From an uncultured Armatimonadia bacterium (lineage in GTDB: Bacteria; Armatimonadota; Zipacnadia; CAZGSV01), in NCBI GenBank assembly GCA_964528605.1, contig CAZGSV010000009.1, forward strand, positions 156 through 64,155: a DNA stretch of 64,000 nucleotides. Reading direction: 5' to 3'. Shown one piece after another: positions 26,103 to 53,443 of the stretch; the first letter of the stretch is position 1; each line of letters starts with the position of its first letter. The notes beneath the pieces were generated by a model that had not been told where the DNA came from, did no database searches, and was given only the letters and a program-made list of their open reading frames with translations. Made by a program: the position numbers and the translations under genes.

Positions 26103-26177
26103 GGGCGGTTGGCTCAGCGGCAGAGCGCTTGCTTCACACGCAAGAGGTCGCAGGTTCAAATCCCGCACCGCCCACCA
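26103..26177 (+). tRNA. tRNA-Val(CAC)
   Basis: Acceptor GGGCGGT/ACCGCCC, D-arm GCTC-AGCGGCA-GAGC, anticodon stem CTTGC/GCAAG with loop TTCACAC, T-arm GCAGG-TTCAAAT-CCCGC (one A-C mismatch), encoded CCA. Confidence 0.8.
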
Positions 26178-26218
26178 CCTGCCATTACCTTTCCCCCCAC
26201 CCAGCCTCCCACCGCGCG

Positions 26219-26280
26219 GAGGCCGCAGGTTCGCCGCACCTTGAGATGTCATGGTGGGCGGTTGGCTCAGCGGCGACGCG
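26219..26280 (+). pseudogene. Pseudo-tRNA-Val fragments: a 3'-part-like segment, the 14-nt spacer, then a 5' half
   Basis: AGGCCGCAGGTTCGCCGCAC-CTTGAGATGTCATG-GTGGGCGGTTGGCTCAGCGGCGACGCG repeats the junction seen upstream of tRNA-Val. Confidence 0.35.
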
Positions 26281-26401
26281 GCCTCAAGCGCCCGCGCCCC
26301 GTCTACCGTATGCCGTCTACCGTCTGTTCCTCCCTCCCTGGCTACTGTCTACTGTCTGCTGGCTACTTCCCCCTCCCCTCTGCCCACTGCCCTCATCCCC
26401 C

Positions 26402-26430
26402 TTGCGCCCACCCGTGCGCCGGGCTAGAAT
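26402..26430 (+). promoter_or_regulatory. Candidate sigma70 promoter for tRNA-Gly
   Basis: TTGCGC, 17-nt spacer, TAGAAT (26425-30), 10 nt upstream of the tRNA start. Confidence 0.45.
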
Positions 26431-26440
26431 TGCCCACCGA

Positions 26441-26515
26441 GCGGAATTAGCTCAACGGTAGAGCAGCGGCTTCCCAAGCCGAAGGTTGCGGGTTCGAATC
26501 CCGTATTCCGCTCCA
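26441..26515 (+). tRNA. tRNA-Gly(CCC)
   Basis: GCGGAAT-TA-GCTC-AACGGTA-GAGC-A-GCGGC-TTCCCAA-GCCGA-AGGTT-GCGGG-TTCGAAT-CCCGT-ATTCCGC-T-CCA. Confidence 0.85.
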
Positions 26516-29047: not shown

Positions 29048-31063
29048 GTGAGTGCGTTTGTTGCCGGCCAAATCATCTTCGCGGCCACCATAGCGGGGCA
29101 GCCAAGCGGCATCCCCCCGGGTGACACGCTCAGCAATTCCCTTGGCATGGAGTTCGTGCGTGTTGAGCCCGACGAGTTTCTGATGGGATGCGACGATGAG
29201 CCGTTGCCCGAGGGGCTGGGCAACGTCGCTTACCTGCCCCACGGGGACTTCGACGAGCACCCCCGGCACCGCGTGCGAATCACCCAGCCCTTCTTCATGG
29301 CCGTCTGTGAGGTCACCAACGCCCAGTACGAACAGTTCGATCCCGAACACCGCAAGTTGCGCGGCAAGATGGGCTTCTCCAAAAACGACGACGAGGCCGT
29401 GGTATTCGTCAGTTGGCACGACGCCGTGCGCTTCTGCGACTGGCTGTCAAAGAAGGAGGGCCTGCCTTATCGCCTGCCAACCGAAGCCCAATGGGAGTAC
29501 GCTTGCCGGGCCGGGACCAACACCCTTTTCAACACCGGCGACTCCTTGCCGGAGATCTACCACAAGGTGCAGGGGGAGTGCTGGTATCCCGACCCGGACC
29601 CGCGCGACCCCGGCGTGCTCTCCACATCGCATGTAGGACACACGCCCCCTAACGCGTGGGGCCTGCACGACATGCACGGCAACGTGGAGGAGTGGTGCTA
29701 CGACTGGTACGGGCCGTACGAGCCGGGCGAACAGGCGGATCCGCTCGGTCGGGCCGACGGAAAGTTCAAGGTCACTCGAGGCGGCAGCCACTCAACCTTC
29801 ATCTACTACCTCCGCTCTGCCAACCGCTCCAGCGCGCTACCTGACGACCGTACCTGGCTCATCGGCTTCCGCCTGGTTCTCGCGCCACTGCCCATCAGCA
29901 AGCCCTTCCCGCCTGCTCCGCCTACACTGTGCATGCAAGGCGTCAAGCAGGGCGTCCCGCCTGATGTCACAAAAGGCCCGGACCCCGCGCAGCCCTACTT
30001 CAAAGGACCACGCGTATACGTGAAGATCCCCCCGGACGCGAACGGGCCCCTGTTCGCGCGCCACAACCACGTTCCCAGCATTGTCGAGTGCCCCAACGGC
30101 GACTTGCTCGCCGTGTGGTACACTTGTGTGCGTGAGCCCGGACGTGAGGTGGCGCTCGCAGCCAGCCGCCTCCGCTTCGGGGAGGATGAGTGGGAACCCG
30201 CTTCCCTCTTCTGGGACGCTGCCGACCGCACCGAAGGGGCTAACGCCCTCTGGTTCGACGGCGACAAGACTATCTACAACTTCATCGGCTTCTCCGTCGC
30301 CGCGACCTGGGGCAACCTCGCCGTCGCGATGCAGACCTCCACCGATAGCGGCGCTACCTGGTCCCGCGACCGCATCATCTTGCCCGAGCACGGCCTCCGC
30401 CAGATACCGATCCCATCCGTGATCCGCACGCGCGCCGGGCAGATCATCTTGCCCTGTGATGCGGACACCGGTGAGGGCGGCACCGCTCTCTTCCTCAGCC
30501 CGGACAATGGCAACACCTGGTGCGATCCTGGGGGGACCGCTGCCGGCATTCACGCGGGGCTCGTGGAACTCAACGACGGCCGACTGATGACTCTCGGCCG
30601 CGGCAACAACATTGACGGCATGATGCCCATGAGCCTCTCGGATGACATGGGGAAAACCTGGGTCTACCGTGCCAGCCCCTTCCCTCCCATCGGCGGCGGT
30701 CAGCGTCTCGCGCTAGTCAGGTTGCAGGAAGGCCCCCTCTTCTTCGCCTCCTTCGCCAAGGAGATGCCTCTGCCCGATGGAGCCGGGGCACAGCGGCAGG
30801 TGTCCGGTCTCTTCGCCGCGGTCTCCTGCGACGATGGAGAGACCTGGCCCCTCCTGCGTGTGCTCAGCGACGGGCCTGACCGCGGGCTCGAAACATTGGA
30901 CGGCAGACCGTTTATGATGACTGCCGCGAGCGCGGAGCCCGCGGGGTACCTTACCGCCATCCAGGCGCGCAACGGGGTCGTCCACCTCATCAGCAGCCGC
31001 CAGCACTACGTTTTCAACCTCGCCTGGCTCGTCCGGACACCGACTCCGCAAAAGCAGGACTAG
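29048..31063 (+). CDS. Fusion protein: FGE-sulfatase (SUMF1/DUF323) domain plus C-terminal BNR/Asp-box sialidase-like propeller
   Basis: N-terminal half: RVTQPFFMAVCEVTNAQYEQF, WEYACRAGT, HGNVEEWCYDWY, TRGGS, R.ANR (the FGE-sulfatase fold). C-terminal half: Asp-boxes STDSGATW, SPDNGNTW, SDDMGKTW, SCDDGETW. Confidence 0.65.
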   Translation: MSAFVAGQIIFAATIAGQPSGIPPGDTLSNSLGMEFVRVEPDEFLMGCDDEPLPEGLGNVAYLPHGDFDEHPRHRVRITQPFFMAVCEVTNAQYEQFDPEHRKLRGKMGFSKNDDEAVVFVSWHDAVRFCDWLSKKEGLPYRLPTEAQWEYACRAGTNTLFNTGDSLPEIYHKVQGECWYPDPDPRDPGVLSTSHVGHTPPNAWGLHDMHGNVEEWCYDWYGPYEPGEQADPLGRADGKFKVTRGGSHSTFIYYLRSANRSSALPDDRTWLIGFRLVLAPLPISKPFPPAPPTLCMQGVKQGVPPDVTKGPDPAQPYFKGPRVYVKIPPDANGPLFARHNHVPSIVECPNGDLLAVWYTCVREPGREVALAASRLRFGEDEWEPASLFWDAADRTEGANALWFDGDKTIYNFIGFSVAATWGNLAVAMQTSTDSGATWSRDRIILPEHGLRQIPIPSVIRTRAGQIILPCDADTGEGGTALFLSPDNGNTWCDPGGTAAGIHAGLVELNDGRLMTLGRGNNIDGMMPMSLSDDMGKTWVYRASPFPPIGGGQRLALVRLQEGPLFFASFAKEMPLPDGAGAQRQVSGLFAAVSCDDGETWPLLRVLSDGPDRGLETLDGRPFMMTAASAEPAGYLTAIQARNGVVHLISSRQHYVFNLAWLVRTPTPQKQD

Positions 31064-32972: not shown

Positions 32973-33028
32973 GAACCGCTCAGCGCTCGCTTCCGACCAT
33001 GCGGTGTGCTCTGCTACACTATCGCCAG

Positions 33029-33115
33029 GCCGGAGTGGCGTAATCGGCAGACGCAGAGGACTTAAAATCCTCCGCTCGCGAGGGCATGTGGGTTCGAGTC
33101 CCACCTCCGGCACCA
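33029..33115 (+). tRNA. tRNA-Leu(TAA)
   Basis: Acceptor GCCGGAG/CTCCGGC, anticodon stem GAGGA/TCCTC with loop CTTAAAA, long variable arm CGCTCGCGAGGGCAT, T-arm GTGGG-TTCGAGT-CCCAC, discriminator A, CCA. Confidence 0.85.
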
Positions 33116-33154
33116 CCCCCCCTGCGTCACTCGGCCCGCAACAGCCCGCCGTTA

Positions 33155-33213
33155 GCGGGCAAGCCTGTGGGCTTGTCCGCCGAAGGCGGATTCGAGTCCC
33201 GCCTCCCGCACCA
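33155..33213 (+). ncRNA. tRNA-like minihelix element, copy 2 (59 nt, CCA-ended)
   Basis: GCGGGCAAGCCTGTGGG-CTTGTCCGCCGAAGGCGGAT-TCGAGTCCCGC-CTCCCGCACCA: acceptor GCGGG/CCCGC with A-CCA, T-arm GTGGG/CCCGC with the same internal hairpin TCCGCC-GAAG-GCGGA. Confidence 0.35.
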
Positions 33214-33295
33214 GCCACCATCAGGCCCCCCCCGACAGCCACCGGGGCCCCAGCGTGTCCGGTCCACTCAGCAGCACGACGCCGCGCACGAAGTC

Positions 33296-34558
33296 TCATG
33301 GCGCCTTCGGCAGGAACGGCTCCGTGACGATCTTGAGGTACCTTGCCGGCTTCGCCGACATGATCGCCTTCTTGTTCAACTGCAAAACCCACAGCCCGCC
33401 CGGCCGCCTGTGTCGGTCGAAGGCCACTCTTGTGCCATCCGGCGAGACCGCATACCAGCCGATGTCGCCCCAGTCGGTTATCCGCAGCCACCCTCCGTCT
33501 GTCATCCGCAAAGCCCAGAGGTCATCCCGGAACGGCGAAGAGGCGCTCGGTCCCGGACGCGAGCGCTGTGTGATGACGAGCCCGCCCTCCAAGGCCAGGG
33601 CCGCTTCGAGCAAGACAGCGGCCCCGCAATCGGCCCCGCGAGCCTCATTGCGTTGCACGTCCACGACTCCGAGCCGACGCGTATGTGCCCCCGACCCGTG
33701 CAGCACCAACTCATTGATGGGCACCAGCCCGTTCAGTGAATGACACAACCCGTGCGGCAACACGTGGTCCCGCGCAAGCAACCTTCTGGCAGGCGCTGAA
33801 GGGGGCGAGACCAAGAACAGCCCTTCCTCTCGCCGGCTGCCGGAACACTCCACCCCACCCACAAGCAGTTCTCCAGAGGGCAGCCACGCCAGCCCCCAGA
33901 CGAACCCACGAAAGACGACGTCTCGATAGGCTCCGCCCTTGTCGTACAGGTCCAACTGGTTGCGGGCCGTGTCATACAACGCGAAGCCCGACCGGTCCGG
34001 GGAGGCGACCGCCCCCCACAAGGAACCCGCCGCCAACAGCGCCGTGCATCGCCCGTTCCCAACCTCGCACCGGAACACAATGCTGTCTCCCGCTCCCCTC
34101 CCCCTCAACGGGGCGACCAGGACCGCATCACCGGCCGGCGTCCAGGAGCAGTGAAGCCCCGGCCAGTATGCCGTGTTGACCGGCGCCTCGAAGCGGCGAA
34201 CGAGCGCGCCGTCGCTCGTCCGTGTCACCAGGAGTTCTCCCGCCACCAAGCGCCCCAGCCGGAACACCGCAGGCGGCTGGCCGGGTATACCGGGCAACCT
34301 GGCGGCCTGCAGGACTTCGCTCCGCCCGGCGGCGAGCCAGTGAACGGCCACCAGTTTCCCATCCGGCGACCAGGCCATCGGCGACACGTATGAGCCCTCG
34401 AGAATCTGCACCGCCCGCCCCCCCGGCTGCCTCTGCTGCACCAGCCGCCCCGGCCTCCGCGGCGGCCGATTCACATACGCCCATGCAAGCCACAGGGCAC
34501 CAACCAGAGCCGCAACTGCCACCAGCGCCACCCAGCCCCGGCTCACACGTCTCCTCAC
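33296..34558 (-). CDS. TolB-like (PD40/WD40-like) beta-propeller protein with signal anchor, paralog 1
   Basis: PD40-type SPDGKLVA / SPDGTRVAF repeats after an RR-containing TM anchor. GTG 34558 forms a GTGA overlap with the upstream paralog's stop. Confidence 0.6.
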   Translation of the reverse strand: MRRRVSRGWVALVAVAALVGALWLAWAYVNRPPRRPGRLVQQRQPGGRAVQILEGSYVSPMAWSPDGKLVAVHWLAAGRSEVLQAARLPGIPGQPPAVFRLGRLVAGELLVTRTSDGALVRRFEAPVNTAYWPGLHCSWTPAGDAVLVAPLRGRGAGDSIVFRCEVGNGRCTALLAAGSLWGAVASPDRSGFALYDTARNQLDLYDKGGAYRDVVFRGFVWGLAWLPSGELLVGGVECSGSRREEGLFLVSPPSAPARRLLARDHVLPHGLCHSLNGLVPINELVLHGSGAHTRRLGVVDVQRNEARGADCGAAVLLEAALALEGGLVITQRSRPGPSASSPFRDDLWALRMTDGGWLRITDWGDIGWYAVSPDGTRVAFDRHRRPGGLWVLQLNKKAIMSAKPARYLKIVTEPFLPKAP

Positions 34559-35877
34559 CGCGCGGCCTCCGCGGCCCTCATGTGCAGGCGCCACACGCCC
34601 CTCCCCGCCGCGCTCCCCGGCACCCCCGACCGCGCCAATGGCTCAACACTCGCCCGCCCCGCCGAGTACGGTTCCGAACGCTCAAGCCAGCCTCGGTCCG
34701 GTGTCACCACCCATACCCCCGCGGCACCCGTTCGGCCGCCCTGACTGGTCAGTGCGATCTGCTCCCCGTCCGGAGACACCGCAAAGCCGGTGGGCCGGCC
34801 CACCTCGCCGAAAGTAACGCCGAACCATCCGCCGTCACTCAGCCGCGCCAGCCACAGGTCGCGGGATGCCTCCACCCCGGTTTCGCCGAGGCACACCAGC
34901 AACCTGCCACCCAGAGCCAATTCCGCGCCCCCGATGACTCGCACGGGAACGTCCTCTGGAGGAAGAACCACGCGCACCTCCCGACGGAACACATCTATCA
35001 CGCCCGGACTCGCAACCATCTCCCCGCTCGCGTTCGCGCGCCCATCAACAAAGGGAACCAGTCCCGCCATTGACCGCGTGGCTCCCTCACGGAGCACATG
35101 TGACCGCTGCAGGAGACGTTCCGGGTTGCCGCCGCCCCGCCAAGTTGTGAGATACACACCCGGTGTCACAGGCCCCTTCCCCGACACCTGAGCGTCCACC
35201 ACGACGTGCTCCGCATCTACCCACGAGAACCCCCACACGTCTCCTTGAAAGACCGGGCTCTTGCGCTCGCCGCGCCGGTGGACCTGAAGGGCCTCGCCGC
35301 CCTGTACCAGCATCGTCCTGCTGTCTGGGGCGAACACCGCCTCCACACTCAACCCTCCCGCCACCGGACCTCTGTCGCCCGTCAGAACGTCGTAGCGAAA
35401 AGCCCTCGATGCCCGCGGCGCTTCCGCCACTCGGCAGAGCAGGTCGTCGCTTCCAGCCACCCAGAAACACTCGCTGGGCGGCCAGAATGCTGTGTTCACC
35501 GGCGCGAGCAGGCGCTTGATCACCCGGGAGTCGGCCACCCGCACGATCAGCACATCCCCCGCCGCCAGCCGACCCAGCCGGCCAAAGCCCCGATTGTCAG
35601 ACCGCGACGCCTGCCGTCCCGCAAACTCCCGCAGCCAGGCTGTTGCTGGCGGTACCCACCCCACGGCCAAGAACCTCCCGTCTGGAGAAAACGTCAGCGC
35701 CTTCAGCCCGTCGCCGGAAAGAACCTGGAAGATTCCACCCCCACCCGGGAATCGGGCAGAGGCACGCGGCAGCCGCATCCGCCATTCCCGCCCCGCAGCC
35801 AAGGATGCGAAGACTAACACTGCTACCGTTCCGGCCACCAGCCGGCGACGCAACCGGCGTCGTGTCGTCGGCTGCAC
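34555..35877 (-). CDS. TolB-like beta-propeller protein, paralog 2
   Basis: SPDGRFLAV / SPDGEQIAL repeats. Likely GTG start at 35877 sharing one nt with the upstream gene's TAG; it gives the signal anchor RRRLRRRLVAGTVAVLVFASLAAG. Confidence 0.55.
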   Translation of the reverse strand: MQPTTRRRLRRRLVAGTVAVLVFASLAAGREWRMRLPRASARFPGGGGIFQVLSGDGLKALTFSPDGRFLAVGWVPPATAWLREFAGRQASRSDNRGFGRLGRLAAGDVLIVRVADSRVIKRLLAPVNTAFWPPSECFWVAGSDDLLCRVAEAPRASRAFRYDVLTGDRGPVAGGLSVEAVFAPDSRTMLVQGGEALQVHRRGERKSPVFQGDVWGFSWVDAEHVVVDAQVSGKGPVTPGVYLTTWRGGGNPERLLQRSHVLREGATRSMAGLVPFVDGRANASGEMVASPGVIDVFRREVRVVLPPEDVPVRVIGGAELALGGRLLVCLGETGVEASRDLWLARLSDGGWFGVTFGEVGRPTGFAVSPDGEQIALTSQGGRTGAAGVWVVTPDRGWLERSEPYSAGRASVEPLARSGVPGSAAGRGVWRLHMRAAEAAR

Positions 35878-38027
35878 TACCTCTCTCGCGCCCTCCGCGT
35901 GCGCTTCCCCTTCTTCGCCCATGCGCCGGGTCCCTCCTGGATGAACCCATAGTAGCGCCCCATCCAGTAAGGCAGCAAGAAGAAAGTCGCGTCCTCCTCG
36001 CTCGCGCCGCTCCCGCCACCGTCAAGTTCGTAGGGATTGCCGTTCCACTTGAACATCGGCCGCTCGTCCGCCGGCAGCGCCTCGGTCGCCTGCGGATGCC
36101 GGAAGCGGTCGGCGTGCGGGTCCAGCGGCAGGTCCGCCCGCAGGCTGTTCCTCACGGCCCAGTAGCGCAAGTCCATGGGTATCTCGCGCAGCGTCCGCAC
36201 CGCGCCCTCGATGTCGCACGGGTCCCCCGTCACCGCTCCGTAGATGAAGTTGAACCAGGGGCAGCGCTCCGGCCGCTCGATCGCCCACGACCGCCGCATG
36301 CTCATGTCGAGCATCGCCCTAAGGTCCGGGTCCCTCTCGTACTTGAGCAGCGGGTAGTAGGCGGTGAACGCTAGTTCGTCGTCCGAGTGATTGATGGACC
36401 CGGGCCTCAGCACCTTCTGGTCAATCACGTTGAGGCCGTAGTGGTGCTTCTTGATCAGTTCCAGGTAGGCGCGCTGGTACTTCTCCTCGCCCGTCATGTA
36501 GTAGGCGACCTTCAGGTGCGACAGCACCTCCAGCGCGTTGAGACCCTTCTGCTCCGGCCAGTCGTAGTTCAGCCGCTCGGGATTCCAGAAGCCCCAGGTG
36601 GTCGGCTCGCCGTCCACGTCAATGAGCAGGTAGCCGTTGGCCATTATGTAGTCGGTCATCCTCCGCACCACCCGCCGGAGGCGCCCTTTCTCGCGCTCGT
36701 CGGCGACCAGATCGTAGTAGATCGAGTAGGCGAAGTAGTGGCCGTCAATCTCGTCGGAACTGGTGTCCGCCTTCCATTCCCACTTGCCGTCCGGCGAGTC
36801 GTACCATTCCCCCCCCGACTTCTCCACGCCCTTCTCCCCCTTGCGCACGAGGGCGCGCGCCACCAGCCCGGGTACCGAGGTCTTCTCCGCCAGCATGATG
36901 AGCGCGTTCAGCGTCTTGCGCGCCAAGCGCCGCCCCTCTTCGTCTCCCGTCGCCGCATACCGATAGCACTCCGCCGCGCAGTACAGCGCCGACCACAGGC
37001 CGTCGTTGTCGCTCGCTTCGTAGGTGACCTCGGCGAAGTTGTCGGCATCCTTGAAGGAGGAGACAGTCACGAAGCCGTAGCGATTGTGACGCGCCTGCAC
37101 TTGCGTCTCAAAGATGAGCGCCTTCTCCTCCAGCGTCATCAGGCGCTGCTCGATCCTGCTCAGGCCCTCCGGCGTTCCCAGCCAAGCCGTCCCCTCCGGC
37201 CCCACCGCGATCGCCTGCACCGACAGGGCCGGCAGCCAGCGCTGCGCCGAGTAATAGTGCCACTGCCCACGCTCGAGTTTGGCCGCGCCCGTGCGCCCTC
37301 CGAACCAGCGCTCGCCGTTCGGCCCCTTCGCCATCACGCGCACCTGCAACAGCGGCAGCCCTTGCTCCCCCCTCAAGGAATACCAGCCCTTGCCGCAGTC
37401 GAAGATGTTGCCGCCGATCGCATGCCCGATCCACAAATGACCAACACCGTCCGCCATCAAGCAATAGACGTGCCGGTTGAGCAGCCCACTACCTCCATCC
37501 CCCATCAGGACGTGCTCCCACTGCCCGTCCCCCAGCGCGAAGAGGCCGTCGAGTGTTCCCAGCCAGAGCGTGCCCGCGCACCAGGCAAGCGAGGTCGGTC
37601 TCGCGCCCTCGGGCAGCGCAATGCGCGGCGCACCCCGCGCACCGGCCTGCCACACGGCAGCGCGACCAACCGCCCACACTTCGCCAGGCGCAGCCTCAGC
37701 AAGGGCAACTGCGCCGGCGCCCACTCGCGACCACTTGCCTCTCTCCAGCACGCGCAACCCGCCTTCGCTAGCGGCCCACACGCGCCCCCTCGTGTCCGCC
37801 AGCAAAGCCCTTACCGCCGAACGCGCCAACCCGCGCGCACCCACCCTTGCGAACCTCCCCCTGTTCAACACCGCGAGCCCCTTGTCCGTGCCGGCCCAGA
37901 CGCGTTCCTTCGCGTCCACCGCCAGCGCCAGCACGTTCTCGCTGGGCAGCCCCTGATCCCGGCCAAAGAACGCGCGAAACTCCTGCGGGTACGGGCCTGT
38001 GCTGAGGCGATGCGTAGCCTGGGACAT
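35877..38027 (-). CDS. Two-component-regulator-propeller (Reg_prop/Y_Y_Y-like) beta-propeller protein with a roughly 400-aa C-terminal domain of unknown function
   Basis: N-terminal repeated V.AL..D..G.VW.GT..GL blades. The C-terminal half is rich in W/Y/D (GEWYDSPDGKWEWKAD..., WGFWNPERLNYDWPEQKGLNALE) with no family I can name. Confidence 0.5.
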   Translation of the reverse strand: MSQATHRLSTGPYPQEFRAFFGRDQGLPSENVLALAVDAKERVWAGTDKGLAVLNRGRFARVGARGLARSAVRALLADTRGRVWAASEGGLRVLERGKWSRVGAGAVALAEAAPGEVWAVGRAAVWQAGARGAPRIALPEGARPTSLAWCAGTLWLGTLDGLFALGDGQWEHVLMGDGGSGLLNRHVYCLMADGVGHLWIGHAIGGNIFDCGKGWYSLRGEQGLPLLQVRVMAKGPNGERWFGGRTGAAKLERGQWHYYSAQRWLPALSVQAIAVGPEGTAWLGTPEGLSRIEQRLMTLEEKALIFETQVQARHNRYGFVTVSSFKDADNFAEVTYEASDNDGLWSALYCAAECYRYAATGDEEGRRLARKTLNALIMLAEKTSVPGLVARALVRKGEKGVEKSGGEWYDSPDGKWEWKADTSSDEIDGHYFAYSIYYDLVADEREKGRLRRVVRRMTDYIMANGYLLIDVDGEPTTWGFWNPERLNYDWPEQKGLNALEVLSHLKVAYYMTGEEKYQRAYLELIKKHHYGLNVIDQKVLRPGSINHSDDELAFTAYYPLLKYERDPDLRAMLDMSMRRSWAIERPERCPWFNFIYGAVTGDPCDIEGAVRTLREIPMDLRYWAVRNSLRADLPLDPHADRFRHPQATEALPADERPMFKWNGNPYELDGGGSGASEEDATFFLLPYWMGRYYGFIQEGPGAWAKKGKRTRRARER

Positions 38028-38078
38028 GGCGACCTCCTAAAGTGGCGCTAAGCGTGCAGGGAATCTAAGCGAGCCCGG

Positions 38079-40271
38079 CTACGCTTGTCGAGCGGCCTGC
38101 TGATGCCTCGGCTGTTCGGTGGGCAACTCGACGTAGAAAGTGGACCCCCGGCCCACTTCGCTCTCCGCCCAGATGCGCCCGCGGTGCCGTTCCACAATGC
38201 CGTAACTCACCGAGAGCCCAAGCCCCGTGCCTCGCTCGCCCCGAGTGGAGACAAACGGATGGAAGATCTTGTCCAGCATATCAGGCGGAATCCCGCAGCC
38301 GGTATCTTCGACCTCGACCAGCAGCCGCCCCTGGTTCCTGAGCGTGCGGATCGTGAGCGTGCCTCCATCCGGCATCGCCAGACCCGCGTTCACGAACAGG
38401 TTCAGGAAGACCTGCACCAGTTGATTGGGGTCACCGATAATCTGGGGCACGGCGGTCTCGAACTCCGTCACCATCTTGATGCCGCGGATAGAGGGGTGCG
38501 TGCGCGCCAGGCTGATGGTGCGCTGCAGCACATTGTGAATGTCGGTGCGCACCATTTCGGGCACGTTCTGCCGGGCGAAATCAAGCAGCCCGCGCACTAT
38601 CTCCTTGCAGCGCATGACCGCCTCTTCAATCCCGCCCATCCACTCGTCCGCCCGCTCCTCGCGCGGCAGCACGCGCCGAATCCTCTGCGCCGTAATCAAA
38701 ATCGCGCCGAGTGGATTGTTGATCTCGTGCGCCACCCCCGCCGCTAGTTCGCCAATGGCCGCCAGTTTCTCCGACTGGTACAACTGCCTCTGCGCGTCCT
38801 CCAGGTCCCGATACGCCTGGCGCAAGCGATCGTAAAGCCGCGCGTTCTCCACCGCCACCGACAACTGGTTCCCCAGCGTCGCCAGCAGCGCCACATCCGC
38901 CGGCGACAACAAATCCTCCGAGCGCTTGTCACCCACGAGCACGAACCCGCTCAGCCCCTCCTTGCTTCGCAGCGGCACCGCCACCTGCGCCTGCAACTCC
39001 TGCATGCGCCGCTGCGCCGCCACTAACAGTCTCTTGTCCCCAGCGCTCAGGTTAAGAGCCTTCAGCATCAGCACAATCTCATCGCGCACCAGCGGCTCCT
39101 GCATCTTGCTCAGAGCCCTGACCAGCCAGTCGCCCTGCGCAATCTGCTCGGCCTCGCTCCCGTCCGGATACCGCGCGTTGGCCACATAACGCCCGTTGTC
39201 GCTCAGGTAGATGAAACCGCGCGCCACGCCCAGCGCCCGCCGCAGCGTCTCCAGCGTATACTCGAGCAATTCGTTGATCTCCAGGAACGACACCACCGTG
39301 CCGCTCAAATCACGCAGCATCTGCTGTGCCTCGTATTCCTCCTTGAAGAAGCGACGCTCCACCAACCTCTGCAAGCGCTTCTGCAGAGGCTGGAAGGCCA
39401 AGGCCAGGCCGAAGGCCATGATAGCCAGCAGATAGTAGGGCACGGGGTCCCTCACGCCGGCCCTGACCCCCTGCATCAGCAAGAGCAACACCAGGGCGTA
39501 AACGCCCCCTACGCCCGCGGCCACCACCGAGTACCACGCCCCCCGCCGGATCGCCACGCTGATGTTCATCAGGCGGTAGCGCACAATGGTGTAGGCAATA
39601 ACCAGCACGTAGAGAATCTGCATCACGTGGCCGATCGGATAGATGGTCACCACGCGGTGCACCAGCAGGAAGTTCGGAATGCCCCCCAGCAGCGCAATCA
39701 CGATGGCGATAATCAGGTAGCGCAGCCGGTTCCGCTCCACCGCCTCCGACGCCCGCACATACCGGTAGAAAAGCGCCCCTATGCCCAAGCACATGTAGAA
39801 GAAGAAAAAGTTGTCGAAGACGCTGCTCACCGTTGATGTCCGAGGCACCCACCCCCCGTAGACTGGGTTCCAGGGCACCCACTGCAGTTGGGCGATGAAA
39901 ACCCCCCGGATGCTGTACCACATGAACGCCGCCGAGATCATGTAGCCCGCGTGCGCCACCGAGTACAGCCAACGCCGCCGCACCCCGCTCACCGCGAGCA
40001 TGAAGTGATACGACAGCGGCGCCAAGAACAGCAGCCCCAGGTGCAGGCAGTTGTTCCACATCAGCGCCTGCCGGTAGCCCTCGCCCGTGTTGGGCACGTA
40101 GTACATCATGAAAAAACCCGTGTTCCAGATGGCCAGGGCCAGGCACACCAGCCCGAACAACTGATTGGCCTTGCCCCGCGGATTGCGCAGCACCACGAAA
40201 CCCGCCAGGCATAAGTTCGCCAGCCCCGCCAACAGAGGCGGGAAGTTGAAGATGTTGATGTTGATGTTCAC
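38079..40271 (-). CDS. Sensor histidine kinase: N-terminal 7TM-type membrane sensor, GAF, HisKA, HATPase_c
   Basis: Seven TM helices at the N-terminus, a GAF-like middle, H-box AAGVAHEINNPLGAI, and G-boxes GTGLGLSVSYGIVERHRGRIWAESEVGRGSTFYVELP. No response regulator is adjacent. Confidence 0.8.
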   Translation of the reverse strand: MNININIFNFPPLLAGLANLCLAGFVVLRNPRGKANQLFGLVCLALAIWNTGFFMMYYVPNTGEGYRQALMWNNCLHLGLLFLAPLSYHFMLAVSGVRRRWLYSVAHAGYMISAAFMWYSIRGVFIAQLQWVPWNPVYGGWVPRTSTVSSVFDNFFFFYMCLGIGALFYRYVRASEAVERNRLRYLIIAIVIALLGGIPNFLLVHRVVTIYPIGHVMQILYVLVIAYTIVRYRLMNISVAIRRGAWYSVVAAGVGGVYALVLLLLMQGVRAGVRDPVPYYLLAIMAFGLALAFQPLQKRLQRLVERRFFKEEYEAQQMLRDLSGTVVSFLEINELLEYTLETLRRALGVARGFIYLSDNGRYVANARYPDGSEAEQIAQGDWLVRALSKMQEPLVRDEIVLMLKALNLSAGDKRLLVAAQRRMQELQAQVAVPLRSKEGLSGFVLVGDKRSEDLLSPADVALLATLGNQLSVAVENARLYDRLRQAYRDLEDAQRQLYQSEKLAAIGELAAGVAHEINNPLGAILITAQRIRRVLPREERADEWMGGIEEAVMRCKEIVRGLLDFARQNVPEMVRTDIHNVLQRTISLARTHPSIRGIKMVTEFETAVPQIIGDPNQLVQVFLNLFVNAGLAMPDGGTLTIRTLRNQGRLLVEVEDTGCGIPPDMLDKIFHPFVSTRGERGTGLGLSVSYGIVERHRGRIWAESEVGRGSTFYVELPTEQPRHQQAARQA

Positions 40272-40313
40272 GCTGGATCATCCCGCCCGCGGATACCCGC
40301 GGCCTGCACGCTT

Positions 40314-42653
40314 CTAGTCTTCGAAGGCGCCCACTACCAGGGTAGCGTTCTTCCCCCCGAAGCCGAAGGAGTTGCAGAGAGCGTTGCGTACGCTCATCTC
40401 CCGACCCACGTTGGGCACGTAGTCCAGGTCGCACTCGGGGTCCGGGTGCTCGTAGTTGATCGTGGGGTGGACAAAGCGGTCGCGGATGGATAGCAGGCAG
40501 GCCGCCAGTTCGATGGGGCCCGAGGCGCCGATGCTGTGGCCGATCAGCCCCTTGGTCGAGTTCACCGGCACGCGGTAGGCGTGCTCCCCCAACACGCTCT
40601 TGATGATCATCGTCTCCGTCTTGTCGTTAAGCGGCGTGCTGCTGCCATGCGCGTTGACGTACTCCACTTCCTGCGCCGTCAGCCGAGCGTCGGCCAACGC
40701 CTCAGTCATCGCCCGCCCCGCCTCCGCGCCGTCCGGCGCCGGCCGCACCATGTGGAAAGCGTCGCCCGTAGCCGAGTAACCCAGCACCTCGCCCAAAATG
40801 GTCGCCCCCCGGGTTATGGCGTGGCCCAACTCCTCCAGCACCAACACGGCCGCGCCCTCGGACATCACAAACCCGTCCCGGTCGCGGTCGAAGGGCCGAC
40901 ACGCCTGCGCGGGCGCGTCATTGCGCGTGGAAAGAGCGCGGATGGCGTTGAAGGAGGCCACGATGATCGGCCGCAGGGGAGCCTCCGCACCCCCCGCCAG
41001 CGCCGCGTCTATCTCCCCGCTCTGAATGGCGCGGAAGCCCCAGCCGATCGCGTCCGCGCCCGCCGCGCAGCCAGTGGAGATGGTCACCGTCGGCCCCTTG
41101 CTGCCCAATTGCATCGAGACTTCGCTCGACACCGCGCCGCTGAAGACCACGATCGCCAGGAAGGGACTCACCTTCTCCGAACCTTCCCCCAGAAAGATCT
41201 TGTGCTGCTCCTCGGCGAACTCAATGCCGCCCACGCCGGTGCCGATGTAGACCCCCACGCGCTCCGCGTCTTCCTGGCTCATATCCAGGCCCGCGCCGTC
41301 AACCGCCAAGCGCGAGGCCGCCACCGCCAGGTGCGTCGAGCGCCCCGCCCGCTTCACCGTCTTGGCGTCGAGAAAGTCGTGCGGGTCGAAGCCGGGCACC
41401 TCGCCGCCAAAACGCGTCGGCAGGCCAGTGGCGTCGAAGAGCGTGAAAGGACGGATCCCCGACTCGCCCCGCTTCGCCGCCTCCCAAAACACCTCGGTCC
41501 CGATGCCCAACGGAGTCACCATGCCAATGCCGGTCACCACCACGCGGCGCTTGGGCGCTGCTTCCGCCCGTGGCCGCAGCACGTACAGCGCCACCTTTTC
41601 CGTCCCCTCGCGCGCCAAGTCTTCGTAGGCGCTTTGCGCCCGCCGCAGCAACTCGTCAACCTCGGCCTGCCGCGCAGGCATCACCGCCACCCCCGCCTGC
41701 GCCCGCAGCCGATCCGCCACCCGAGTCACCGAAAGCGTCTCGGCCACGCGGCCCACGATCCTCTCCGCCGCCCGCATGCCCTCCCGGTATTCTACTCCCG
41801 GCAAGATGAGAAACAGCCTGTTCTCCTCGAGGCGCCCGACGCTCTCCCCGGTCCGCGCGCCCGCGTGCACCAGGCGCACCACTTCCTGCACCAGCACCTC
41901 AGCCGCGGTCGCGCCGCGTTCGCCCCGGAGCGCCTCCCATCCGGGCAGCCCCACGCACACCACGCACACCACGCCGTCGCGACGTCGCGCGCGCAGGATC
42001 TCCTCTTGCAGACGCACCTCCAGCGCTTCCTTGGTCAACACCCCGGGCGCCCCCTCTTCCACCGCCCAGCCCGCGCGCTCCTCCAGCAGTGAGGCCAAGG
42101 CCACGCTCCGAGTCTCCAAGCCCCGATAGCGCTCCACAATCCCAACCAGGTCGCTCGCCACCGAGCGTATCGCGCGACCCGCGACCAGCAGTTCCTCTTC
42201 CTTAAGGACCGGCAGGTGAGCCACCTCGGCCAGCACTTCCTCCGCCGAGAGCCCCAATTCCATCGTGACCTTGCGTAGCGCGGTCGTGTCCGTATCCGCC
42301 GACCCGATTCCCCCCCCGACCACCGCGGCCACGGGCACACCCGCGGCCACCAAGGGCACCGCGCACACCAGCAGCCCCCCATGGCACCGCCATAGCCCCA
42401 CTCCTTCCGCGGCTACCGTCTCGCTGAAGCACTCCCTGGCGTAGCACTCCCGACAGCGGCTGATACCCAGCACCGTGCTGCGGATGAGCCGGCAGAATCC
42501 ACTCAGTTGCGTCTCCCCCGCCAGCAAGTCACCGTCCGGCCCCACCAGCAGCGGCACCACCCCCAACAGGTCGCGGCCAACCCGTTGCAGGCGCTCCCAC
42601 TCACCCACCACCCCCATCAAGCCGGCCACATTGCGCCTGCTTGGGCCGCTCAT
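40314..42653 (-). CDS. Tri-domain fusion: PocR-like sensor, degenerate GGDEF-like domain, full-length beta-ketoacyl-ACP synthase II (FabF-type KAS)
   Basis: PocR motifs FCRLIRSTVLGISRCRECYARECFSE and CHGGLLVCAVPL. The GGDEF-like region has LEENR in place of GGEEF. The KAS domain starts at KRRVVVTGIGMVTPLG and carries the Cys in TISTGCAAGADAIG, His in NAHGSSTPLNDK and His in GHSIGASG, ending CNSFGFGGKNATLV. It is a single uninterrupted 779-aa ORF. Confidence 0.7.
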   Translation of the reverse strand: MSGPSRRNVAGLMGVVGEWERLQRVGRDLLGVVPLLVGPDGDLLAGETQLSGFCRLIRSTVLGISRCRECYARECFSETVAAEGVGLWRCHGGLLVCAVPLVAAGVPVAAVVGGGIGSADTDTTALRKVTMELGLSAEEVLAEVAHLPVLKEEELLVAGRAIRSVASDLVGIVERYRGLETRSVALASLLEERAGWAVEEGAPGVLTKEALEVRLQEEILRARRRDGVVCVVCVGLPGWEALRGERGATAAEVLVQEVVRLVHAGARTGESVGRLEENRLFLILPGVEYREGMRAAERIVGRVAETLSVTRVADRLRAQAGVAVMPARQAEVDELLRRAQSAYEDLAREGTEKVALYVLRPRAEAAPKRRVVVTGIGMVTPLGIGTEVFWEAAKRGESGIRPFTLFDATGLPTRFGGEVPGFDPHDFLDAKTVKRAGRSTHLAVAASRLAVDGAGLDMSQEDAERVGVYIGTGVGGIEFAEEQHKIFLGEGSEKVSPFLAIVVFSGAVSSEVSMQLGSKGPTVTISTGCAAGADAIGWGFRAIQSGEIDAALAGGAEAPLRPIIVASFNAIRALSTRNDAPAQACRPFDRDRDGFVMSEGAAVLVLEELGHAITRGATILGEVLGYSATGDAFHMVRPAPDGAEAGRAMTEALADARLTAQEVEYVNAHGSSTPLNDKTETMIIKSVLGEHAYRVPVNSTKGLIGHSIGASGPIELAACLLSIRDRFVHPTINYEHPDPECDLDYVPNVGREMSVRNALCNSFGFGGKNATLVVGAFED

Positions 42654-42668
42654 CGTCCCGCCCCTGCA

Positions 42669-43127
42669 TCACACCTCATGCTCGGCACGCGCCTCCTGAG
42701 CCATCAGACGCTCCACCCCAGCCAGGAACCTCCGCGCCATTTTACCCACTACCAGCCGGTGCACCACATTCCGCGCCAGCCAATCGCCACCCGGAAAGCG
42801 GGGTGCATACCGATGCACTATCGAAACCCGCGTCCCCTGCCCCTCCGGCCTCACCCTCCACACGGTCACCATCCCCCTCAGTGGCCCCTTCAGTTGCACG
42901 AACTCCACCCGGTCGTTCCCCACCACCTTCCCTAATGACACCCAACGCATGGGCAACCCGAAGACCCGCCCCTGGCGCTCCACCACCACCCCGTCCTCCC
43001 GCTCCTCTAGCACACGCGAACCGGAGTAATCATCCGTCAGCCGATCGTACTCCCCCAGATTGCTCACCACCGCGAACACACGCTCCGGCGACGCCTCCAC
43101 TACCGCGGCATCTTCTACCTCTACCAT
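42669..43127 (-). CDS. SRPBCC-superfamily protein (polyketide cyclase/dehydrase-like, START/Bet v1 fold)
   Basis: 152 aa with the Polyketide_cyc2-like pattern (VEASPERVFAVVSNLGEYDRL...WRVRPEGQGTRVS). ATG 43127 has GGAGG upstream. It sits 16 nt upstream of the KAS-fusion gene. Confidence 0.6.
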   Translation of the reverse strand: MVEVEDAAVVEASPERVFAVVSNLGEYDRLTDDYSGSRVLEEREDGVVVERQGRVFGLPMRWVSLGKVVGNDRVEFVQLKGPLRGMVTVWRVRPEGQGTRVSIVHRYAPRFPGGDWLARNVVHRLVVGKMARRFLAGVERLMAQEARAEHEV

Positions 43128-43181
43128 AGTGCCTCCCGCCGGCGGCGCCTCCTAGCCGCCGCTCCGCGATTCTAGCCCGAC

Positions 43182-44213
43182 CTAGAAACCAATCACAGCG
43201 CTCACATAGTGGGTGCCCGACTCCGGCTGAGGACCAACCGCCGGGAACATGTCCTCCGCCGACTCCTTGTTCAAGTCCTTGGCGTAGGCATAGTCCAGTC
43301 TGAAGTTGCGCGCCCGATAACCCACCCCCGCCGTCCACGCCCCCCCGTAGGAGCCCGCGCGCACGCACAGGCCCTCGCTCAACGACCGCTCTACACCCCA
43401 GTACGGGCGCGAGTCCGTGATCTCCCACCCCGCATCCCGGTTCTCATAGGCGAGCCGCGCATACTCGCCCGCCACCACCGTCTTCTCGTCCGGCCGGTAG
43501 GCCAGCCCGCCCTTGATTATCGTCGTGCGGTAACTGCCCCCGGGGCTGAACGTCGGCGGTGGCGGCACCGGCAGCAGCCAGTAGTTACTCTCCACCTCGT
43601 CCCAATACGAGTACACCGCCCCAGCCGACAGACGGTCAGAGAGCCATTGAAAGACCCCAGCCTCCACCCCGCCGCGCCCCTGACCTCGGGTCCGGTAGGG
43701 GGCAGCGTCCACGTGCACACTGGACAGCGCGCCCGTCAGACCCACCGAAGTGCGCCGCCCTACCCGCAGCCCCCCCGCCAGCAGCACCGCGTCATAAGAG
43801 ACGGACTCCACCGCGCCCGTCAGCGTGTTCAGGTAGGAGTTCGACGCCAGCGAAGTCTTGCGCACCTCAAACGCCGCCTGTTCCGACAGTATCTGCGCCA
43901 GCGAGTACGAGCGCACGGTGTACTCCGGGCCGCTGCCTTGGTCTATGGTCCCCATGCCCACGATGCCGGCCTCCACTGTACTGCGCGGCACCCACACCAG
44001 GCTGGCGGCATTGCGGATGTTGCCTTCATCCGCGACCGCGGTGCACACGCCCCCCATGCCCAGCAGGCGGATGCCCCCGCCTTGCGCTATCGTCAACGCC
44101 GACAGCACGCTCCCTCTGCCGGGAAGCTGCGGAGCCTGCGCCCACGCGCACGAAGCCCCCAACCCCACCGCGATGACCAGTACCAAAACAGTCAACCGAG
44201 CCGATTGTCTCAC
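43182..44213 (-). CDS. Putative outer-membrane beta-barrel protein
   Basis: GTG 44213 with GGAGG 10 nt upstream. Signal peptide VRQSARLTVLVLVIAVGLGASCAWAQAP, alternating amphipathic strands, and a C-terminal ...YVSAVIGF with terminal Phe. Confidence 0.45.
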   Translation of the reverse strand: MRQSARLTVLVLVIAVGLGASCAWAQAPQLPGRGSVLSALTIAQGGGIRLLGMGGVCTAVADEGNIRNAASLVWVPRSTVEAGIVGMGTIDQGSGPEYTVRSYSLAQILSEQAAFEVRKTSLASNSYLNTLTGAVESVSYDAVLLAGGLRVGRRTSVGLTGALSSVHVDAAPYRTRGQGRGGVEAGVFQWLSDRLSAGAVYSYWDEVESNYWLLPVPPPPTFSPGGSYRTTIIKGGLAYRPDEKTVVAGEYARLAYENRDAGWEITDSRPYWGVERSLSEGLCVRAGSYGGAWTAGVGYRARNFRLDYAYAKDLNKESAEDMFPAVGPQPESGTHYVSAVIGF

Positions 44214-44383
44214 GGCCAGTTCCTCCTCAACTCGATGATCCGGTGCCTCAGTCTTGATAGTTACTCTAACAACTAGCCCGCCCCATGGCCGGTTCAGCGA
44301 CCGCAAACCGCGCCGCGCCTCGCTCGGTGGCGCGCCGCTGCCGCGGCTGCTAGACTCCCTCGCCACCACCACGGGGTGATGCC

Positions 44384-45475
44384 GTGAACGCCCGCGAGCG
44401 CTTCCTCGAGACCGTGCTCTTCGGCCGGCCCGACCGAGGCTTCCGCTGGGAGAGCCTCGGCTTCTGGGGCGAGACCGTCCGCGCTTGGCGTCAACGGGGC
44501 CTCCCCGAGGACCAGAGCCCCGAGGCCTACTTCGAGTTCGACCCCTTCGCGGACCTGCCGGTCGCCAGTGGCTTCACGGGCACTCCCTATTGCCCCCCCT
44601 TCGAACACCAAGTGCTGGCGGAGGACGATTTCTCCATCACCTACCGCAGTAACCAGGGCATACTCCTGCGCGAGCGCAAGGAGAAGGCGGAATTGTCTAT
44701 GCCACAATTCCTCGAGTTTCCGGTAAAAGCACCGGAGGATTTCGAGGCCCTGTTGTGGCGCCTAGACCCGAGTGACCCCGACCGGCTCCCGCAGGACTTC
44801 GACGCCCGTGCCGCGCAGTGGCGCCAGCGTGACTACCCCCTCTTCCTGCGCATCTGCGGCGCCTTCGGCCACCCCCGCAACCTGCTCGGCCTCGAGCGCC
44901 TCCTCGTCACCTACTACGACGACCCGCAGTTCGTCCACCGCATCCTCGACCATTGGGCGGGCTTCTACGAGGCCCTCTTCGACCGGGTCCTCTCCCAGGT
45001 CACCGTGGACTTGCTCATGATCTGGGAGGATATGTGCTACAAGGCCGGCCCGCTCATCGGGCCCGCGCTCTTCCGCGAGTTCATGCTGCCCTACTACCAC
45101 CGAGTGATAGACTGCGCGCGCCAGTTCGGAGTGCCCATCATTATGGTGGACACCGACGGCAACTTCTGGGACCTGCTCCCGCTCTTCCTGGAGGCCGGCG
45201 TCAATATGATGATGCCCTTCGAAATCGCCGCCTCCATGGAGCCGCTCGAAGTGCGCAAGCAGGTGGGCAAGCGCCTTGCCATCCTCGGCGGCATTGACAA
45301 GCGCGCACTCCGCGCCGATAAGCGCGCCGTCGAGGAAGAGGTCGAGCGCAAGGTGCCGCAGTTGGTCGCCGAGGGCGGCTTCATCCCTTGCCTCGACCAC
45401 ACCGCGCCGCCCGACATCTCGCTCGACAACTTCGCCCACCTCGTCCGCTGCCTCCGCCGCTATACCGAACCGTGA
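44384..45475 (+). CDS. Uroporphyrinogen-decarboxylase (URO-D)-like family protein (MtaA/CmuA-type)
   Basis: 363 aa with a URO-D-fold C-terminal pattern (MVDTDGNFWDLLPLFLEAGVNMMMPFE, LAILGGID...FIPCLDHTAP). Confidence 0.55.
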   Translation: MNARERFLETVLFGRPDRGFRWESLGFWGETVRAWRQRGLPEDQSPEAYFEFDPFADLPVASGFTGTPYCPPFEHQVLAEDDFSITYRSNQGILLRERKEKAELSMPQFLEFPVKAPEDFEALLWRLDPSDPDRLPQDFDARAAQWRQRDYPLFLRICGAFGHPRNLLGLERLLVTYYDDPQFVHRILDHWAGFYEALFDRVLSQVTVDLLMIWEDMCYKAGPLIGPALFREFMLPYYHRVIDCARQFGVPIIMVDTDGNFWDLLPLFLEAGVNMMMPFEIAASMEPLEVRKQVGKRLAILGGIDKRALRADKRAVEEEVERKVPQLVAEGGFIPCLDHTAPPDISLDNFAHLVRCLRRYTEP

Positions 45476-45720
45476 TCACCGCTGCGGTGGCGCCGGCCAT
45501 CCGCGGACTGCGGCCCATCGGCCGGCCCACCCTATTGGTCGCCCGCCTCGAAGTCCAGCCAGTTCCCTCCCGACCGAACGCGTCCGCGGCTGCCACCTTG
45601 CGGGTGGCCTGTAGCAACCCGATCTTACCTGGCCCCCTCAAAAGGCTCGCCTCCGCCAGGTCGCAGGCGGGCCCCGACTGAGTCGGCGCGCCTACCACCC
45701 GGTACGCGAGTGCGGAGCAA

Positions 45721-53333: not shown

Positions 53334-53443
53334 CCGGCACCGGAAACGATTCTGGGCAGGCAACCGTTGTGCTATATCAGAGATAGGCGCGGCCGTGCGG
53401 TCACGCGCGCTCGCTTGTGCCGAGCAGCCCGACGAACACGATC

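Follow-up and report, generated by a model that had tools for sequence, protein, structure and literature searches.

A gene of 779 codons in a 64,000-nucleotide stretch of DNA from an uncultured Armatimonadia bacterium (contig CAZGSV010000009.1, positions 156 to 64,155; hereafter the window) was found to encode, in a single polypeptide, a PocR sensor domain, a long helix, a degenerate GGDEF domain, a short linker and a FabF-type ketosynthase (KS). Coordinates are collected in Table 1. The open reading frame (ORF) starts with ATG and contains no internal stop. Pfam recognised PocR (73.7 bits, cut-off 23.9) and GGDEF (46.5 bits, cut-off 23.8), followed by ketoacyl-synt (PF00109, residues 369-610, 170 bits) and Ketoacyl-synt_C (PF02801, residues 620-735, 118 bits). 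These scores and the NCBIfam score given below are far above chance level. The three domains named in an earlier note on this DNA therefore hold, and its caution that the N-terminal part might miss the PocR and GGDEF models could be set aside, since both matched. An ORF of 518 aa on the opposite strand (40536..42092, +) was rejected as a shadow ORF of high-GC DNA.

AlphaFold2 (AF2) produced a confident model of the PocR domain, with a GAF/IclR-effector-like fold similar to ligand-binding effector domains. Residues C54, C67 and C90, together with W19, Y71, G93, L94 and P100, were invariant in the family described below. PocR was defined by Anantharaman & Aravind 2005 and, as far as the account of that work in PMC1592074 goes, binding of a small hydrocarbon-derived ligand was a prediction even for the founding members. 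The helix between PocR and the GGDEF-like domain resembles signalling helices and was predicted in both AF2 models. The succession of PocR, long helix and further domain fits the usual grammar of signalling proteins, where an N-terminal sensor is followed by a helix and then by an output domain (PMC1592074). In P0018, a relative devoid of GGDEF, the PocR helix leads almost straight into the first strand of the KS.

The GGDEF fold was supported by matches of the family profile to PleD, WspR and others and by AF2 (predicted local distance difference test, pLDDT, of about 80-88). Its signature was degenerate in all members (EENRL, FEEHM, RGDKF, GDSEF, SGNEF, DDTRF, RGNVF, EGNIF, FEDQF, GEDEF and SGTGF). 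In the window protein, R274-L-[E-E-N-R-L]-F places EENRL (E276 to L280) at the GG[DE]EF site, in register with the relatives; the degeneracy had been recognised in the earlier note, but the replacement was read there as LEENR, one position off. The metal/GTP-site stretch reads VGLPGWEALRGERGATAAE in the window versus VNVDHLAIVNKNYGHEVGD in less degenerate members, and the metal and GTP residues were replaced; we take the roles of the metal-binding Asp and of the GTP-binding Asn/Asp upstream of the signature from the PleD literature. An active diguanylate cyclase was ruled out, as the GG[DE]EF signature and the metal/GTP residues are gone. R267, an acidic residue at position 270 (Asp or Glu depending on the lineage) and R298 were kept in the first eleven members. 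Aligned by profile to PleD, they fall on its I-site residues R359, D362 and R390. The window displays R267-T-G-E270 plus R298, that is, RxxE instead of RxxD.

At the C-terminus, the KS scored 529.3 bits with the NCBIfam fabF equivalog TIGR03150, a narrow margin over the cut-off of 493.75. Its active site is complete, with C529 (STGC), H669 (NAHGSST), K701 and H706 (both in STKGLIGH) and the GFGG loop (764-767). The Cys and both His had already been pointed out, to which K701 and GFGG are now added. The catalytic Cys, His, Lys and His as well as GFGG were conserved in all full-length members. The best solved relative was KAS II of Synechocystis (1e5m, 431 bits, about 48% identity); the actinorhodin KS-alpha matched with 323 bits, and the best Foldseek matches were FabF throughout.

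The junction between both halves was given particular attention. The linker preceding the KS (AF2 pLDDT below 50 at residues 360-366) counted about 8-15 residues in nearly all lineages. Together with the helix-to-KS join of P0018, this shortness suggests mechanical coupling of the domains and not a loose tether. A PocR-GGDEF regulator gene and a fabF gene could in principle have been merged artificially, through a frameshift in sequencing or a chimera in assembly, a reading that might draw on the existence of stand-alone PocR-GGDEF relatives of the N-terminal half (P0015 in L094). It is already effectively refuted and its probability is negligible. Nucleotides 41550-41600 contain neither a stop nor a homopolymer longer than 5 nt, and the same intact ORF, with the junction at the same position, occurred in four independent assemblies of the species and in nine other lineages; the earlier claim of a junction free of stops and frameshifts was thus confirmed. 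The three other assemblies of the same species (L001 from ENA, L002 and L003 from JGI) derive from three other samples, share about 98.9% DNA identity over the fusion gene and carry the same neighbours as the window. A public collection also contains the exact window protein, which shares a 90%-identity cluster with two others, one of 779 aa from ENA and one of 767 aa from JGI (called from Met13). The KS half differed between strains by eight synonymous and no nonsynonymous changes, a divergence which shows that the reading frame is maintained. Ratios of nonsynonymous to synonymous polymorphism (pN/pS), which rest on small counts of differences, were 0.08-0.15 for the PocR part and 0.39 for the GGDEF-like part, where three of five changes lay in the dead signature loop (RLEENRLF vs RFEEHMLF). 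This pattern clearly points to purifying selection on all three parts, with the frame kept across the junction.

Residues 1-366 alone were searched exhaustively with HMMER against 1.84 billion cluster representatives. The best matches were proteins of 764-800 aa, aligned across the whole sensor half at 21-31% identity. Seven matches displayed the same PocR-GGDEF-KS architecture according to Pfam (P0011, P0012, P0013, P0014, P0017, P0019 and P0021), and P0018 (614 aa) was of the PocR-KS type without GGDEF. One more lineage (L095/L096, 789 aa, 46% identical) was found through a metagenome scan with a clade-specific KS motif; this motif is specific to part of the clade, and two of the 36 metagenome stretches that matched it were true relatives. 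Nine further lineages thus carry the sensor-KS fusion, with full-length identities of 37-47% to the window protein. Mean pairwise identity within the family was 26% for PocR, 24% for the GGDEF-like domain and 53% for the KS (range across lineages 48-67%). The named members came from Candidatus Poribacteria (MBI5417711.1) and Candidatus Desantisbacteria (MFH1096855.1 and MFH1897863.1) and were annotated merely as "beta-ketoacyl-ACP synthase II". Judged from these comparisons, the fusion is a rare and old family, apparently undescribed. The earlier impression of an unprecedented-looking protein has to be amended, since the family is recurrent and already present in databases, but no paper describing it was found: neither PocR with a ketosynthase nor this architecture turned up in a literature search, which left out subscription journals and hence amounts to absence of evidence.

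Two other proteins were encountered near the family. The nearest relative of the sensor half, P0015 (L094:1389-2426, 345 aa), stands alone as a PocR-GGDEF protein, with the degenerate signature SGTGF, its own stop codon and no adjoining KS. The sensor module thus occurs independently as well. L094 was considered as a split PocR-GGDEF and KS pair and rejected, the following gene being unrelated. P0016 (410 aa) breaks off after 35 residues of the KS although its contig measures 11,526 bp, which may reflect a contig edge, a frameshifted pseudogene or a natural truncation.

For comparison, 88 ordinary KS from 80 loci were taken as outgroup from the listed matches of a profile scan seeded with RVV[VI]TG..., a more or less random set. 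None of the 80 ordinary KS loci listed in that scan had a sensor half. In a neighbour-joining (NJ) tree, the nine fusion-lineage KS halves formed one split against these 88 sequences (bootstrap 84/100), to which their mean identity was 42%, as compared with 54% among themselves. Clade-specific substitutions were found within residues 504-534 (Table 1, where the E. coli FabF numbering is our own count). The Phe at 504 corresponds to I138 of E. coli FabF, which we take to line the bottom of the acyl pocket, and it could therefore limit chain length, although this is a lead only. The genomic setting differed as well: an acpP-like gene was present in the flanks of 39 of the 80 ordinary KS loci versus none of the 16 fusion loci. 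Likewise, neither an AcpP nor a FabG probe matched anything in the 64-kb window or in the 16 loci with the fusion, and no second KS was found in the window. On these sequence data, the KS appears to be a specialised FabF paralogue in its own clade and outside fab clusters, rather than an ordinary fabF product.

As the main rival, one may consider a FabF of the housekeeping type, or a second general one, whose sensor would adjust bulk membrane fatty-acid elongation to environmental or metabolic cues, much as chain length is under FabF-dependent thermal control in E. coli. We consider it rather unlikely. The best solved relatives are indeed genuine FabFs, no locus holds a dedicated acyl carrier protein (ACP), so that the enzyme must use the housekeeping one, and the L093 member lies 3 kb from lpxC/fabZ-lpxA. 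Yet the clade stands apart from the 88 ordinary KS, its members are never located beside acpP or fabG, their synteny is conserved with genes foreign to fatty-acid synthesis (FAS), and the family is rare, as one family-specific motif gave only two related loci in the metagenome collection.

The conserved gene neighbourhood, which had been missed in the earlier note, was the most informative evidence. Neighbours were compared by BLASTP and not by Pfam label. Partners comprised SRPBCC proteins in 8 of 10 lineages (orthologues of the window protein at 24-50% identity), PF04199 proteins in 6, FadL-type (Toluene_X) or outer-membrane-protein-like (OMP-like) proteins in 5 and ICMT proteins in 3. Proteins with a seven-transmembrane (7TM) part and a GAF domain accompanied the fusion in 7 of 10 lineages, and two of the remaining contigs stop too early to show one. 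Gene orders are listed at the end of Table 1, HK standing for histidine kinase.

Table 1. Features of the fusion gene and of its neighbours in the window, followed by gene orders at the fusion loci.
Feature	Residues	Position	Strand	Basis or remark
Fusion gene, PocR - helix - pseudo-GGDEF - linker - FabF-type ketosynthase	779 aa	40314..42653	-	ORF, Pfam, NCBIfam, relatives
PocR sensor domain	18-170	42144..42602	-	Pfam PF10114
Long connecting helix, signalling-helix-like	152-194	42072..42200	-	AF2 secondary structure
Degenerate GGDEF domain	207-351	41601..42035	-	Pfam 46.5 bits, motif table, PleD alignment
Linker, GGDEF-like domain to KS, roughly 17 residues	352-368	41550..41600	-	AF2, lineage comparison
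FabF-type beta-ketoacyl-ACP synthase domain	369-775	40329..41549	-	TIGR03150, motifs, clade
Clade-specific substitution	F504			Equivalent to E. coli FabF I138
Clade-specific substitution	G506			Equivalent to E. coli FabF N140; Asn in 77% of ordinary KS
Clade-specific substitution	S510			Equivalent to E. coli FabF G144
Clade-specific substitution	L516			Equivalent to E. coli FabF Y150
Clade-specific substitution	D534			Equivalent to E. coli FabF H168
SRPBCC/START-like protein, 15 nt upstream of fusion	152 aa	42669..43127	-	Pfam Polyketide_cyc, Polyketide_cyc2
7TM-type membrane + GAF + HisKA + HATPase kinase, 42 nt downstream of fusion		38079..40271	-	Pfam
OMP-like ORF, start probably internal, signal-peptide-like segment, ends ...VIGF		43182..44372	-	No Pfam match
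Reg_prop beta-propeller, 51 nt after kinase	716 aa	35877..38027	-	Pfam Reg_prop
Gene order, window and L001-L003				OMP-like, SRPBCC, fusion, 7TM-GAF-HK, Reg_prop
Gene order, P0012 (L009)				PF04199 (cut), SRPBCC, fusion, 7TM-GAF-HK
Gene order, L096/L095				PF04199, SRPBCC, fusion, 7TM-GAF-HK, REC-GAF-HD-GYP
Gene order, P0011 (L004)				GGDEF protein, OMP-like, PF04199, SRPBCC, fusion, contig end
Gene order, P0017 (L011, Poribacteria)				PF04199, weak SRPBCC-like 152-aa ORF, fusion, contig end
Gene order, P0013 (L005)				PilZ-methyltransferase-acyltransferase, (7TM-)GAF, fusion, contig end
Gene order, P0014 (L010)				Fusion, HEAT, 7TM-GAF-HD-GYP, 7TM-GAF-GAF-GGDEF
Gene order, P0018 (L006-L008, Desantisbacteria)				Toluene_X, PF04199, PocR-KS, SRPBCC, ICMT, SRPBCC, ICMT, 7TM-GAF-HD-GYP, HDOD-HD-GYP
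Gene order, P0019 (L092)				Toluene_X, SRPBCC, ICMT, ICMT, fusion, 7TM (cut)
Gene order, P0021 (L093)				PF04199, SRPBCC, fusion, two small ORFs, Toluene_X, ICMT, lpxC/fabZ, lpxA

In the window, the fusion gene and its neighbours are arranged head to tail on the minus strand, separated by 15, 42 and 51 nt. A scan of positions 33000-45600 for consensus promoters and terminators stayed at chance level, so that the putative operon is deduced from the gaps only. The OMP-like ORF shared 31% identity (E 1e-34) with an ORF of 356 aa that takes the same place in L004 and displayed a marginal match (E 0.001) to the Toluene_X protein of L092; it is possibly a divergent channel of the FadL/TodX type. The Reg_prop gene was kept in L001-L003 and had no counterpart in the other lineages, and its membership of the system is uncertain. 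Directly downstream of it, two paralogous ORFs (33296-35922, minus strand; 455 and 432 aa, 30% identical to each other) gave no Pfam match.

The Pfam names of some neighbours ("polyketide cyclase", "cyclase") could evoke a cryptic type II polyketide-like KS, whose SRPBCC and PF04199 partners would act as cyclases, folding a poly-beta-keto chain to give an aromatic or a pyrone. Two motifs, STGC and DPECDLDYVP, are similar to those of KS-alpha, and the actinorhodin KS still gave a substantial score (see above). Such a type II polyketide synthase (PKS) is nevertheless very improbable here. No fusion locus displayed a chain-length factor, a second KS or an ACP, the KS is closer to FabF than to KS-alpha by bit score, and the NCBIfam PKS ketosynthase model NF005490 gave 252 bits against a cut-off of 445. 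The neighbours point elsewhere too: the SRPBCC partners (24-55% identical to one another) had as nearest solved structures the START/Coq10-like lipid binders 1t17 and 2d4r, not polyketide aromatases/cyclases, and the PF04199 partners (46-59% identical) were nearest to isatin hydrolases and other metal-dependent hydrolases.

The 7TM-GAF partners form a coherent ensemble. Residues 4-487 of the window kinase were homologous to 7TM-GAF modules in six other lineages (E 1e-29 to 1e-53), and its full-length identity was 57% to the L009 kinase and 43% to the L095 kinase. These homologues matched Pfam HisKA_7TM, and hydropathy indicated 6-9 membrane segments. Their outputs vary by lineage, being HK, HD-GYP or GGDEF, so that a shared input seems to be wired either to a phosphorelay or directly to turnover of cyclic di-GMP (c-di-GMP). 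HD...HD...GYP motifs were present in all HD proteins at fusion loci. According to a census of HD-GYP proteins, HD_5 combined with GAF or REC is practically always a genuine HD-GYP domain, and the REC-HD-GYP family is named in the same source (bioRxiv 10.1101/2021.11.05.467447). As judged from gene order, the L095 locus, where the kinase is followed by a REC-GAF-HD-GYP regulator, links the phosphorelay and c-di-GMP designs.

Other genes in these surroundings deserve mention. An ORF of L005 (85-2154, 689 aa) combines PilZ, a SAM-methyltransferase and Acyl_transf_2 and is a second fusion of enzyme and c-di-GMP sensor in a neighbourhood of the family. In L093, a 422-aa fusion of LpxC with a FabA/FabZ-like dehydratase (6565-7833) is followed by lpxA, 3 kb from the family member. 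In the window itself, 20 kb from the fusion, a 491-aa protein (60087-61562, plus strand) carries HD_5 of the HD-GYP type behind an N-terminus of about 230 residues without assigned domain, and was 31% identical over 169 aa to HD proteins at other fusion loci.

The abundance of signalling genes around the fusion could also suit a non-enzymatic KS, serving as acyl-ACP or malonyl-ACP receptor in a scaffold that signals to the adjoining 7TM-GAF kinase. The GGDEF domain, already a non-catalytic relic, illustrates that domains of the fusion can be repurposed. A scaffold repurposed for signalling had been put forward in the earlier note, yet it is improbable, because the catalytic and gating residues were invariant between lineages whose KS share only 48-67% identity. 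In addition, strains displayed no nonsynonymous KS change, binding alone would not need the full Cys-His-His-Lys set, and the KS occupies the C-terminus, the usual site of output domains (PMC1592074).

The reading we favour, to which we attach about even probability on the basis of sequence comparisons, is that of a specialised FabF paralogue whose condensing activity would be controlled by its sensor, which would form the core of a small pathway for a fatty-acid-derived hydrophobic product and which would be paired with a 7TM-GAF receptor. The scaffold, the type II PKS and the artefact are all disfavoured with respect to it. The idea of a sensor-regulated KS, which the earlier note had raised as ligand- or nucleotide-gated elongation, gained from the deep conservation of the fusion, the purifying selection on its three parts and the short conserved linker; its nucleotide part has to be regarded as weak (see below).

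In such a system, PocR, with its GAF/IclR-effector-like fold and three invariant Cys, would bind a small ligand or sense a redox state or a metal. The long helix would carry the signal to the dead GGDEF domain, acting as a dimeric adaptor and in some lineages perhaps with c-di-GMP bound at the I-site, and the short linker would then set the activity of a dimeric KS in an allosteric manner. The latter would condense malonyl-ACP with an acyl primer taken from housekeeping FAS, giving a product that is presumably fatty-acid-derived. The START-like protein, the PF04199 hydrolase, the ICMT methyltransferases and the FadL-type channel could release, modify, carry and move this product. Finally, the 7TM-GAF receptor might sense the product or the resulting membrane state and feed phosphorelay and c-di-GMP turnover.

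Several observations weigh against the sensor-controlled pathway. The fabF equivalog cut-off was passed, so that a plain FAS role stays compatible with the KS. The outgroup of the NJ tree was a convenience sample, and the family was sampled from about ten lineages, mostly on short contigs. The full-length AF2 model (pLDDT 72, predicted template modelling score 0.46) displayed a poorly modelled KS, and its inter-domain geometry, including any contact between GGDEF and KS, is not reliable. The SRPBCC gene was missing beside the fusion in L005 and L010. PF04199, ICMT and a clear Toluene_X (FadL) gene were not found in the window, so that the "pathway" there comes down to SRPBCC and KS. Nor was the I-site kept universally: in L095 an insertion lies at this site and R274 is lost, so that the site is gone, and in P0018 the entire GGDEF domain is missing. 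Binding of c-di-GMP is therefore not a family-wide requirement; from the alignments it appears possible in part of the family and doubtful for the subclade of the window. Nucleotide gating, as proposed earlier, thus fares poorly, with GTP and metal residues gone, an RxxE I-site in the window, loss of the site in L095, the closest subclade member, and the domain dropped in P0018.

A more far-reaching scheme can be drawn from the same gene comparisons, although we hold it doubtful. A lipid-based signalling circuit might exist where the synthase itself is the receptor, gated allosterically by the PocR ligand and, in some lineages, by c-di-GMP at the relic I-site; its fatty-acid-derived product would be carried by the START-like protein, moved by the FadL-type channel and sensed by the 7TM-GAF protein, which would set c-di-GMP levels via HD-GYP or GGDEF outputs. 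If true, it would give the first case of a type II condensing enzyme gated directly by a small molecule, and uncultured phyla would harbour a new class of autoinducer-like system.

In textbooks, type II ketosynthases are enzymes that stand alone, and their control is exerted chiefly through transcription and the supply of substrate. The fusion resembles FabF/KAS II (E. coli FabF, 1e5m) in fold, in the Cys-His-His-Lys site, in the GFGG gating loop and in passing the fabF equivalog. However, FabF is free-standing, about 410 aa long and usually located beside acpP, whereas the fusion of 779 aa carries 368 extra N-terminal residues, and its KS belongs to its own clade, is never beside acpP and displays the F504, G506 and S510 substitutions. 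With known PocR sensors (the pdu/cob regulator PocR, PocR-histidine kinases) it shares PF10114 at the N-terminus, a long helix and a further domain; the outputs known for them are domains of the DNA-binding, kinase, chemotaxis or cyclic-nucleotide kind, and no report of a condensing-enzyme output was found.

PelD and PopA, degenerate-GGDEF c-di-GMP receptors controlling an enzyme or machine via the I-site, offer a parallel for the middle domain. The fusion likewise lost the catalytic signature, most members keep Arg-x-x-Asp/Glu and the downstream Arg, and the loci are rich in c-di-GMP proteins (HD-GYP, GGDEF and PilZ). It differs by RxxE instead of RxxD in the window, by the lack of the site in L095 and by the lack of the domain in P0018. 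We know of no receptor of the PelD/PopA type fused to a ketosynthase.

At the level of system logic, a likeness exists with the diffusible signal factor (DSF)/Rpf system of Xanthomonas, composed of the synthase RpfF, the sensor kinase RpfC and RpfG, a REC-HD-GYP protein degrading c-di-GMP. An enzyme that diverts FAS intermediates, or in the case of the fusion would divert them, stands beside a sensor kinase and an HD-GYP regulator, as exemplified by the KS fusion, 7TM-GAF-HK and REC-GAF-HD-GYP of L095. Yet RpfF has a crotonase fold, the components are not homologous and the fusion synthase carries its own sensor; any signal molecule made by the fusion is a predicted one. PqsD/PqsBC, DarB and PpyS are thiolase-fold condensing enzymes dedicated to small signalling molecules and not to bulk lipids. 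Unlike the fusion, they are FabH-like (KAS III) and devoid of sensor domains, and the NCBIfam DarB model gave 23.6 bits against a cut-off of 550. MabR (Rv2242), a transcription factor for mycobacterial FAS-II, ketosynthase genes included, combines globin, GGDEF-like and helix-turn-helix domains (PMC11617747). It joins a sensor to a GGDEF fold without catalytic and inhibitory motifs and controls genes of fatty-acid elongation (PMC11617747), a combination akin to that of the fusion, but it acts on DNA, whereas the GGDEF-like domain of the fusion is joined to the enzyme itself. In none of the compared systems is a type II elongating ketosynthase joined to a sensor.

A ketosynthase with its own ligand sensor would represent a new way of controlling how lipid metabolism forms carbon-carbon bonds. 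Taken together, the conserved partners suggest that poorly known phyla (Poribacteria, Desantisbacteria and the high-GC lineage of the window) contain a lipid or lipid-signal pathway not yet characterised. As a natural and compact sensor-enzyme chimera, the family may also be attractive for building fatty-acid or polyketide chemistry that is controlled by a ligand. It further reveals an annotation blind spot, all members being labelled simply FabF.

Elsewhere in the window, several other genes were recorded. A protein of 934 aa (53417-56221, plus strand) with two FAD_binding_4 and two FAD-oxidase_C domains looks like a tandem fusion of FAD-linked oxidases, and another of 671 aa (29048-31063, plus strand) is an FGE-sulfatase fused to BNR_2, a sialidase-like propeller. 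A 783-aa protein (13637-15988, minus strand) combines a NACHT-NTPase with HEAT repeats in a STAND-type architecture. Candidate ORFs of 1212 aa (8594-12232, plus strand) and 594 aa (1419-3203, minus strand) were without a Pfam match (E <= 1e-4). Genes for tRNA-Leu(GAG), tRNA-Val(CAC) and tRNA-Gly(CCC) are clustered at 25881-26515 (plus strand), with three more tRNAs at 32275, 33029 and 51557. Finally, a 439-aa protein (12287-13606, minus strand) matched the N-terminal part of neutral/alkaline ceramidase, a lipid enzyme uncommon in bacteria.

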